Source: Nanobdellati archaeon (GTDB taxonomy: Archaea; EX4484-52; WAPT01). From it: DNA of 64,000 nucleotides. Position 1 is the first letter of the stretch; every line of letters starts with the position of its first letter. A model generated the notes under the pieces. It was not told the origin of the DNA and searched no databases. It worked only from the letters and a program-made list of their open reading frames with translations. Positions 9,063 through 40,669 of the stretch are shown here, piece by piece. The DNA lies in the NCBI GenBank assembly GCA_027038505.1, contig JALVWC010000013.1, forward strand, positions 55,795 to 119,794, written 5' to 3'. The translations under genes and the position numbers were made by a program.

Positions 9063-9138
9063 TGGTAGCCCCGCCAGGATTCGAACCTGGGTCTGGGGGT
9101 CCAGAGCCCCCCATGCTTGGCCGCTACACCACGGGGCT
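9063..9138 (-). tRNA. tRNA-Gln (anticodon CUG), CCA encoded
   Basis: Reverse complement AGCCCCG-TG-GTGT...GGGGG-CUCUGGA-CCCCC-AGAC-CCAGG-TTCGAAT-CCTGG-CGGGGCT-A-CCA. Confidence 0.85.
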
Positions 9139-16267: not shown

Positions 16268-16714
16268 ATGAAATATGTGATAGCTCACGACATAAGAGAG
16301 CTTGCGGAAGACGTTGTGAAAACGCTGGGCTGGGAGTACATAGACCTCGGCAGAGTGATATTTCTAAGGAGTTACGGTTCATCATCGAAAAGGGTTGTTG
16401 CAAGATGCCACGGGCTTGGCAGGATATGGCAAAAAGCGCTGGGGCTCAAACCCCACTACATCATCGAAGTTATTTCTGAAAACTTTGACAATCTCAATCC
16501 CGAGGAAAAGGTGAAAACTGTGATTCATGAACTGATGCACATACCCAAATGTTTTGGCGGGGGGTTCAGGCACCACGACTGGGTAAATCCGAGAAATGTT
16601 AAAAGATATACAGATCTTTACCTAAGCAGAGTAAAGGAAACGGAAAATCACGGATCATCCCGCAAAATTCTCGGAAAAAGTCTCAGATCTTTACCTCCCT
16701 CTCCATCCCGATAG
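16268..16714 (+). CDS. HExxH metallopeptidase-like protein (SprT/COG1451-like)
   Basis: HELMHIPKCFGGGFRHHDW zinc-binding motif. 148 aa. Confidence 0.4.
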   Translation: MKYVIAHDIRELAEDVVKTLGWEYIDLGRVIFLRSYGSSSKRVVARCHGLGRIWQKALGLKPHYIIEVISENFDNLNPEEKVKTVIHELMHIPKCFGGGFRHHDWVNPRNVKRYTDLYLSRVKETENHGSSRKILGKSLRSLPPSPSR

Positions 16715-28942: not shown

Positions 28943-29080
28943 TGGTGGGCCCGACGGGATTTGAACCCGCGACTCCCGGGTGTCTTCCGCTCCTGCCATA
29001 CGGCAGGGAGGGCAGTCTGGTTAAAAGCTTCGCCCTCCTCGTTAAGAGCCCGGCGCTCTACCAGACTGAGCTACGGGCCC
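28943..29080 (-). tRNA. tRNA-Lys (anticodon CUU) with a ~62-nt anticodon-loop intron, CCA encoded
   Basis: Reverse complement GGGCCCG-TA-GCTC-AGTCTGGTA-GAGC-G-CCGGG-CUCUUAA-[intron]-CCCGG-GAGTC-GCGGG-TTCAAAT-CCCGT-CGGGCCC-A-CCA. 138 nt versus about 76 nt mature. Confidence 0.8.
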
Positions 29081-30123: not shown

Positions 30124-30881
30124 TTAGATCACCCCACAAAATTGTTATCAGAGATTTTTAATTTGGCTTATCGACCGTTTGAAAGAGAGTTTGCTTCAGG
30201 TTCAATCCATTATTTTCCAGTACACTATTTTCATTACTATGGCAATACTATATATTTTTTTCGTTTTCTATACGGGAGCCATTCAAACAAGGAAAGAAAA
30301 CACCACGAGAATGCAAGTTCGGGTGAGACGCCTTCCTGTGGAGATTCAACACAACATACCTCCCACTAAGACGCAAAGATAGAAAGCCTGTAACGGTATT
30401 TTACCGGAATGGTTATTTAAATCGGTATCGATCGCGGGCCGGTGTCGAATTTTTCGAGGATAAGGATGTTATAATGGGGTGTGGAAGATTGTTCAGCAGG
30501 AATATCAACACCCCGTCCGAGTTTCATACGGATAATAAATGCGATCGATGAAATTGTGAGATTTAGCGGGATTGTACAGCCTCATTAACATTTATATATG
30601 CACACGAGTTATCAGTGTTTATTATAGAGAGGGTGGCTTATGAGAAAAGGAGAAGGAAAAGCTCAAGGAGTCGTTCACGAGAACCACGGATATACTGATA
30701 AAGCTCAAGCGCCAGATCCTCGAGTTCCAGAAGAAAATTAAGGAGTAAGGGCAGATTTTGAAACTAAAAAATTTTAAAATACAATCCACATAGGTACTTC
30801 TTGGAAGCGGGCGGTATGGGGGAGGTTCGGAGAAGTTATTCCGATATCCCGATGTTGCCTGCAACTGCTCAGTTTTGAAGC

Positions 30882-30994
30882 GCCGCGGTCGCATAGCCAG
30901 GTAGTGCGGTGGCCTCGAGAGCCACTGCCCGCAAGGGCGCGCCGGTTCAAATGCAGAGAGCCTTACCCTGCTGAAAATCCGGCCCGCGGCGCCA
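30882..30994 (+). tRNA. tRNA-Ser (anticodon CGA) carrying a 26-nt insertion (putative non-canonical intron) in the T-loop
   Basis: GCCGCGG-TC-GCAT-AGCCAGGTA-GTGC-G-GTGGC-CUCGAGA-GCCAC-[long variable arm TGCCCGCAAGGGCGC]-GCCGG-TTCA[AATGCAGAGAGCCTTACCCTGCTGAA]AAT-CCGGC-CCGCGGC-G-CCA. 113 nt against about 87 expected. Removing the 26 nt restores a canonical TTCAAAT T-loop. Confidence 0.7.
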
Positions 30995-37271: not shown

Positions 37272-37380
37272 TGGTGGACCGGCCGGGATTTGAACCCGGG
37301 GCCTCCGCCACTCTGGCGCGCCACCAGCTCATGGCTGCGCGGTGCCAAGGCGACGTCCTTCCAGGCTAGACCACCGGCCC
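37272..37380 (-). tRNA. tRNA-Ala (anticodon GGC) with a ~33-nt anticodon-loop intron, CCA encoded
   Basis: Reverse complement GGGCCGG-TG-GTCT-AGCCTGGAA-GGAC-G-TCGCC-UUGGCA-[intron CCGCGCAGCCATGAGCTGGTGGCGCGCCAGAG]-U-GGCGG-AGGCC-CCGGG-TTCAAAT-CCCGG-CCGGTCC-A-CCA. Confidence 0.8.
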
Positions 37381-40595: not shown

Positions 40596-40669
40596 GCGCC
40601 GGTGGTCTAGTGGTATGATAGCGGCCCCCCAAGCCGCTGACCCGGGTTCGATTCCCGGCCGGCGCACCA
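40596..40669 (+). tRNA. tRNA-Gly (anticodon CCC) with C instead of U at position 33, CCA encoded
   Basis: GCGCCGG-TG-GTCT-AGTGGTA-TGAT-A-GCGGC-CCCCCAA-GCCGC-TGAC-CCGGG-TTCGATT-CCCGG-CCGGCGC-A-CCA. The anticodon loop CCCCCAA has C at position 33 instead of the near-universal U. Confidence 0.75.

Follow-up and report, generated by a model that had tools for sequence, protein, structure and literature searches.

In the BHB motif of archaeal precursor tRNAs, the 5' strand runs through the outer helix, a central helix of 4 bp, a 3-nt bulge, and the inner helix, and the 3' strand runs through the inner helix, the central helix, a bulge, and the outer helix. The archaeal splicing endonuclease cuts after the second base of each bulge, a rule taken from the geometry of the canonical introns at position 37/38. 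Position 59/60, in the T-loop, is reportedly where the split tRNA-Glu genes of Nanoarchaeum equitans, said to have been described by Randau et al. in 2005, are joined. The same position is one of those at which non-canonical BHB introns recur in archaeal tRNAs, as listed for Crenarchaeota/Thermoproteales, namely 20/21, 22/23, 25/26, 29/30, 30/31, 45/46, 53/54, 56/57, and 59/60 (Marck & Grosjean 2003 and Sugahara et al. 2008, via the review PMC4090602). For ARMAN-2 (Candidatus Micrarchaeum acidiphilum, DPANN), Fujishima et al. (2011, PMC3239211) described 59/60 introns in pre-tRNA-Pro(GGG), where the motif is a strict hBHBh', and in pre-tRNA-Cys(GCA), where it is a relaxed hBH that is cut in vitro by the organism's ε2 EndA. 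According to some of the literature, enzymes of the α4 type act at the canonical position only (PMC3239211); Kaneta et al. found that tRNA genes are disrupted more often in several DPANN lineages whose α4 enzymes have the L3 loop, and expect that these lineages hold still-unidentified disrupted tRNAs (PMC5829648). The tRNA intron share is about 8% in Euryarchaeota versus about 48% in Crenarchaeota (PMC4090602).

The gene discussed here lies at positions 30882-30994 (+) of a 64-kb stretch of DNA that was analysed at its full length (hereafter the window). Its sequence reads as a class II tRNA-Ser(CGA) gene with an encoded CCA and 26 extra nucleotides in the T-loop, where 33 nt (UUCAAAUGCAGAGAGCCUUACCCUGCUGAAAAU) separate the two strands of the T-stem in place of the 7 of a normal T-loop. 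Base pairing is intact in every arm, as are the invariant bases U8, A14, G18G19, U33, G53, U54U55C56, A58, C61, and G73. An earlier sequence-only reading had described an intact class II tRNA-Ser(CGA) at these coordinates, with a 26-nt T-loop insertion made up of the helices UUCA/UGAA and GCAG/CUGC, an AAU bulge, and an 11-nt loop; the sequence reads as described, every arm being paired and each of these elements present. The features of the locus are listed below, all on the + strand and read from the sequence unless another basis is given in parentheses.

30766-30781 (+): candidate A/T-rich box AAAAAATTTTAAAATA, possibly a TATA or promoter element (conserved in the alignment with contig L005, see below)
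30882-30951 (+): 5' exon, tRNA positions 1-59, ending GCCGG-UUCAAA (sequence; ARAGORN on the in-silico splice; SPLITS-like scan)
Acceptor stem (+): GCCGCGG / CCGCGGC
Positions 8-9: UC
D-arm: GCAU-AGCCAGGUA-GUGC
Position 26: G
Anticodon arm (+): GUGGC-CUCGAGA-GCCAC, with anticodon CGA at 30916-30918
Variable arm, long: UGCCCGCAAGGGCGC
T-stem: GCCGG / CCGGC
30941-30945 / 30979-30983 (+): BHB outer helix h, the same T-stem, 5 bp, GCCGG / CCGGC (sequence; in all folds)
30946-30949 / 30972-30975 (+): BHB central helix, 4 bp, UUCA (tRNA 54-57) / UGAA (sequence; minimum-energy structure at 70 and 85 °C)
30950-30952 (+): 5' bulge AAU, predicted cut 30951/30952 (BHB geometry applied to the sequence)
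30952-30977 (+): predicted intron, 26 nt, tRNA position 59/60, U-GCAG-AGAGCCUUACC-CUGC-UGAA-AA (ARAGORN after splice; SPLITS-like scan)
30953-30971 (+): inner hairpin h', GCAG / CUGC, 4 bp, 30953-30956 / 30968-30971, with an 11-nt loop at 30957-30967 (sequence; folds)
30976-30978 (+): 3' bulge AAU, predicted cut 30977/30978 (sequence; BHB geometry; fold)
30978-30994 (+): 3' exon, U60, CCGGC, CCGCGGC, G73, CCA (sequence; ARAGORN after splice)
30991 and 30992-30994 (+): discriminator G73 and encoded CCA

Excision of 30952-30977 restores a T-loop of 7 nt (GCCGG-UUCAAAU-CCGGC), and UUCAAAU is the T-loop of tRNA-Met, tRNA-Lys, and tRNA-Ala in the same window. Five registers, from 56/57 to 60/61, yield one identical mature tRNA-Ser(CGA) sequence; since the cut falls after the second bulge base, only 59/60 fits the BHB geometry, and the intron is therefore assigned to 30952-30977. 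Once the T-stem is taken as the outer helix and the second AAU bulge is counted, the motif is a complete hBHBh' and not a relaxed hBH: it has the strict 3-4-3 form, and its central and inner helices consist of Watson-Crick pairs throughout (8 of 8). The sequence-only reading had seen a relaxed hBH-like motif with the intron somewhere around position 56-59, having taken UUCA/UGAA as the outer helix without noticing the second bulge at 30976-30978; the BHB geometry places the junction at 59/60 and not at 57/58. We consider it very unlikely that the insert is an intron of the relaxed hBH type (bulge-helix-loop) near 57/58, one that only a broad-specificity (αβ)2 or ε2 endonuclease could process. 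Such a motif can be drawn from UUCA/UGAA, a single AAU bulge, GCAG/CUGC, and the loop; ARMAN-2 tRNA-Cys provides a precedent for a relaxed intron at 59/60 (PMC3239211); and the imperfect BHB of the tRNA-Lys(CUU) gene in the window (described below), with its C·A mismatch and 2-bp inner helix, hints at an enzyme that tolerates imperfection. However, hBH and HBh' motifs have a bulge or a flanking helix missing or aberrant, and tRNA-Ser(CGA) has its two bulges of 3 nt as well as a helix on either side: with the second bulge and the T-stem of 5 bp the hBHBh' is complete and strict, no relaxation is needed, and the alternative registers, although they give the same product, misfit the cleavage geometry.

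When 30952-30977 is removed, ARAGORN calls a tRNA-Ser(cga) of 87 nt with a normal cloverleaf. On the unspliced gene ARAGORN makes no call, and the Rfam tRNA model scores 16.7 bits against a threshold of 29 bits; both tools miss such genes by design, so that these misses are not evidence for a pseudogene. In a SPLITS-like procedure every BHB candidate in the window was listed and excised, and the product was run through ARAGORN. This check, of the ARAGORN or SPLITS type that had been proposed with the sequence-only reading, returned exactly the 59/60 junction, and over the whole window it found no other tRNA with a non-canonical intron; extra solutions for tRNA-Gly, tRNA-Gln, and tRNA-Lys were rejected as spurious, consisting of G·U-only helices that overlap intact tRNAs. 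Loose BHB patterns are common by chance, amounting to about 600 per strand in 64 kb when the tRNA context is ignored, so that the motif alone proves nothing and its significance comes from its register inside an otherwise perfect tRNA. Motif counting was for this reason dropped as a measure of significance in favour of an in-register shuffle of the 26-nt insert, in which only 40 of 2,000,000 trials (2e-5) gave an all-Watson-Crick BHB that restores the 7-nt T-loop; under the loosest BHB definition the frequency was 1.3e-3. The minimum-energy fold of the whole precursor includes the complete BHB at 70 and at 85 °C, whereas at 37 °C the A/U-rich central helix (UUCA/UGAA) is not formed in the nearest-neighbour model. 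The two higher temperatures suit the host, because its tRNAs and rRNA have 65-73% G+C in a genome of 47% G+C.

A species-representative genome collection that we scanned for tRNA-Ser(CGA) orthologs gave one true ortholog, in WAPT01000002.1 (contig L005, 'Nanobdellati archaeon'), with the same gene in the same neighbourhood and the same 26-nt intron; a second match, inside a Halopseudomonas contig, was discarded as a chance hit. The two introns differ at 2 positions only, both within the 11-nt loop (p≈0.17 for both landing there), and compensatory changes are absent from the BHB helices. The exons are identical at 85 of 87 positions (97.7%), against about 85% identity in the flanks; one difference is a D-loop base, and the other turns a possible U·G pair at the bottom of the variable arm into U-A in L005. 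For one additional species, this conservation of exons and BHB is weakly suggestive of purifying selection. Contigs carrying homologs of RpoB or of the adjacent Lon_C protein were also examined. In more distant relatives the SRP RNA-Lon_C neighbourhood is conserved (Lon_C protein 60-69% identical), but no tRNA-Ser stands beside their Lon_C gene, and this synteny route yielded no further tRNA-Ser(CGA) orthologs. In the collections searched, the intron-bearing tRNA-Ser(CGA) thus occurs in two species only.

These results bear on whether the gene is dead or decaying, its T-loop broken by a 26-nt insertion and its BHB-like fold coincidental, which was the alternative left standing by the sequence-only reading. 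One could point to the silence of ARAGORN and Rfam on the unspliced gene and to the relatives that lack a tRNA-Ser at the syntenic site; moreover, a tRNA-Ser(UGA) can in principle read UCG, so that the gene might be dispensable. Yet all stems and invariant bases are intact and show none of the broken stems, lost invariants, or decay relative to the ortholog that mark a pseudogene; the all-Watson-Crick strict BHB sits in the sole T-loop-restoring register (p≈2e-5); the exons are far more alike between the two species than the flanks, one of the exon changes preserving a pair; and the intron helices are unchanged in L005. UCG accounts for 27 of 320 serine codons (8.4%) in 13 genes of the window, so that a UCG decoder is needed. 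We accordingly judge a dead tRNA highly improbable, and the original preference for a substrate of the archaeal splicing endonuclease over a dead gene appears well founded, judging by the strict BHB and the intact tRNA. That the insert arose in assembly or binning, or marks where a mobile element once integrated, is scarcely credible, even though the source is a metagenome-assembled contig and the 3' halves of tRNA genes are common integration sites: the identical 113-nt gene was assembled in at least three independent data sets (ENA ERZ23491300, Logan SRR13622958, and Logan SRR18691003), a diverged copy exists in another MAG, the window holds no direct repeats, integrase, or second copy of the insert, and 26 nt are too short for a mobile element. 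The second copy was sought over the 64-kb window in a search for intron transposition. At 26 nt the tRNA-Ser intron is too small to be a group I or group II intron or to contain a C/D-box sRNA, and these readings were dropped; no known RNA family was found around the tRNA-Ser gene in Rfam.

The host is archaeal by the markers in the window: SRP RNA, 5S rRNA, RpoH-RpoB-RpoA'-RpoA'', Nop5-fibrillarin, MC1, and Nre. Its RpoB is 100% identical to that on JALWJO010000006.1 (assembly GCA_027081555.1), and its Lon_C protein, with the adjoining tRNA gene, is found at 100% identity on an ENA metagenome scaffold and in two Logan assemblies. Close relatives have RpoB proteins with 82, 77, 62, and 59% identity, followed by many matches at 50-56%, of which those named to a phylum all belong to Candidatus Aenigmatarchaeota except one Micrarchaeota. 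The host is placed among the DPANN archaea, to which the title 'Nanobdellati archaeon' of the L005 record also points, as a thermophile-like, probably thermophilic, organism with Aenigmatarchaeota as its nearest group (about 52-56% RpoB identity). Two side observations concern gene content. In the window, a 148-aa ORF (16268-16714, +) matches the Pfam family PhageMetallopep (putative phage metallopeptidase; E=2.4e-25) and adjoins, on the opposite strand, a gene of the size of an aldehyde:ferredoxin oxidoreductase. In the relative with 77% RpoB identity (contig L006, 1-6450), an Mrp/Mbh-type membrane-bound hydrogenase cluster lies upstream of rpoH-rpoB, so that this relative has a broader metabolism than DPANN archaea commonly show.

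Six tRNA genes occur in the 64 kb, all of which encode CCA: 736-813, 9063-9138, 28943-29080, 30882-30994, 37272-37380, and 40596-40669. Introns interrupt three of these genes: tRNA-Ser(CGA) at 59/60, and the two listed next at the canonical site.

37272-37380 (-): tRNA-Ala(GGC), with a 32-nt intron at the canonical 37/38 site (ARAGORN intron mode)
28943-29080 (-): tRNA-Lys(CUU), with a 61-nt intron at the canonical site (imperfect BHB)

The tRNA-Ala(GGC) intron lies in a strict hBHBh' (UCGCC/GGCGG, UUGG/CCAG, bulges CAC/AGU, inner CGCG pairs), and from such a canonical intron in the same window the host evidently runs the BHB splicing pathway. In tRNA-Lys(CUU) the central helix, CUCU/GAAG, includes one C·A mismatch besides a G·U pair, and only 2 bp make up the inner helix. 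The core of this intron, GAGGGYGAAGCTTTTARCCAGACTGCCCTCC, is conserved in the relative with 77% RpoB identity (L006 9519-9660, +), where the intron is 65 nt long; no Rfam family matched within it. The tRNA-Lys(CUU) intron may carry a function of its own, or it may indicate a tolerant endonuclease. An intron load of three in six tRNA genes is unusually high for an archaeon outside TACK, and high by euryarchaeal standards. Neither EndA nor RtcB was found among 48 ORFs of the window scanned with Pfam, nor in the window and the retrieved loci by tblastn with M. jannaschii EndA, a query that had been verified against PDB 1A79.

With the rival readings weighed, the T-loop insert of tRNA-Ser(CGA) is very probably a functional 59/60 intron, for whose removal EndA and RtcB would be responsible. 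The strict hBHBh' of the precursor would be built from the T-stem, the bases 54-57 paired with the intron's UGAA, the two AAU bulges, and the intron hairpin. EndA would then cut each bulge behind its second base, at 30951/30952 and 30977/30978, and an RtcB-type ligase would seal UUCAAA onto U-CCGGC; the product would be an 87-nt tRNA whose T-loop, UUCAAAU, is normal. That cleavage and ligation take place, and through which enzyme, we infer; the other BHB introns in the window imply a BHB splicing pathway in the host.

Upstream of the gene, comparison of 30766-30881 with L005 places the A/T-rich box AAAAAATTTTAAAATA about 100 nt before the tRNA-Ser, followed by a G-rich spacer that is partly conserved; at -25 to -35 from the tRNA-Ser 5' end no TATA-like box is conserved between the window and L005. 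Were the A/T-rich box a promoter element, the transcript would have a long 5' leader; the arrangement as a whole suggests either such a leader or a small RNA that has gone unrecognised. Further upstream, the stretch 30130-30880 (about 750 nt) holds no convincing gene. At about 30650-30748 (+) a coiled-coil ORF has only its 3' end (...EKEKLKESFTRTTDILIKLKRQILEFQKKIKE*) in frame in the window, directly preceded by a stop; the coiled-coil reading frame of L005 extends further 5' than the window copy.

Metagenome data were scanned once with the pattern GCCGG-TTCAAA-[insert]-TGAANN-TCCGGC, representing a T-arm with a 59/60 intron, and 101 contigs proved to carry the same type of T-loop insert. ARAGORN accepted 21 of the matches as valid tRNAs after excision at 59/60; 4 of these 21 were the copies of the tRNA-Ser described above, and the other 17, from the metagenome contigs, were Pro-UGG, Leu-CAA, Tyr-GUA, Val, and Ala tRNAs. 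Several other matches that we inspected are multi-intron tRNAs, and no further tRNA-Ser(CGA) was present among the 101 contigs. The contigs L010, L018, L053, L047, and about 20 similar ones from soil or sediment have multi-intron tRNA genes with a nearly identical short 59/60 intron (A-CAGGNC...CCTG-TGAA-TG) and introns elsewhere as well; this family is typical of TACK archaea and shows that T-loop introns are common in environmental data. Two other metagenome contigs, L091 (around 2018, -) and L016 (around 3529, +), contain tRNA-like genes in which a BHB insert at 59/60 is combined with a long variable arm and the anticodon loop CUGACCA (apparent anticodon GAC); ARAGORN does not call either gene even after excision. 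The earlier statement that such introns are rare outside Thermoproteales-like lineages is overstated in view of the ARMAN-2 introns at 59/60, the tRNA disruptions of DPANN archaea, and these metagenome contigs (PMC3239211, PMC4090602, PMC5829648).

The main value of the result lies in annotation. Intact but interrupted, the tRNA-Ser(CGA) gene is invisible to ARAGORN and, at threshold, to the Rfam tRNA model; the annotation of this MAG would therefore report tRNA-Ser(CGA) as missing and understate the completeness of the genome, and recognition of the intron recovers this 'missing' tRNA. It also adds one more case of tRNA disruption in DPANN archaea, useful for tracing how the architecture of the endonuclease and the disruption of tRNA genes have co-evolved, and leaves the current picture unchanged. 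A broader idea, which we put forward as doubtful, is that the Aenigmatarchaeota-related lineage may be an unrecognised intron-rich group with an endonuclease of a type uncharacterised at non-canonical sites, e.g., an α4 enzyme bearing the 'L3' loop of DPANN archaea, and that the 59/60 intron may be related, as a cis form, to the 59/60 split in Nanoarchaeum; if so, introns and split genes would be linked within DPANN.

The 59/60 kind of intron is itself known; what appears to be new here is its occurrence, with a strict BHB, in a class II tRNA-Ser(CGA) of a little-known, thermophile-like DPANN lineage. The tRNA-Ala(GGC) intron in the same window has the same strict hBHBh' and presumably uses the same enzyme, but it lies at 37/38 in the anticodon loop, where the intron mode of ARAGORN sees it, and not in the T-loop. 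With the Crenarchaeota, and the Thermoproteales in particular, the gene shares a transplantable BHB signal outside the anticodon loop, the 59/60 hot spot, and the property of being missed by ordinary tRNA finders; those archaea, however, have an (αβ)2 EndA, often relaxed motifs, and multiple introns per gene, whereas we find one strict motif in a DPANN-affiliated host. The split tRNA-Glu of Nanoarchaeum equitans resembles it in the T-loop site, in a BHB-like junction processed by EndA, and in a thermophilic DPANN host; there the halves are separate genes joined in trans, while here a cis intron of 26 nt is all that separates the two exons, which lie on one strand. ARMAN-2 tRNA-Pro, finally, has in common with tRNA-Ser(CGA) the 59/60 site in the T-loop, the strict 3-4-3 BHB, a short intron, and a DPANN host; it differs in carrying two T-loop introns where the class II tRNA-Ser(CGA) has a single one, and the lineage described here is thermophile-like and nearest to Aenigmatarchaeota.
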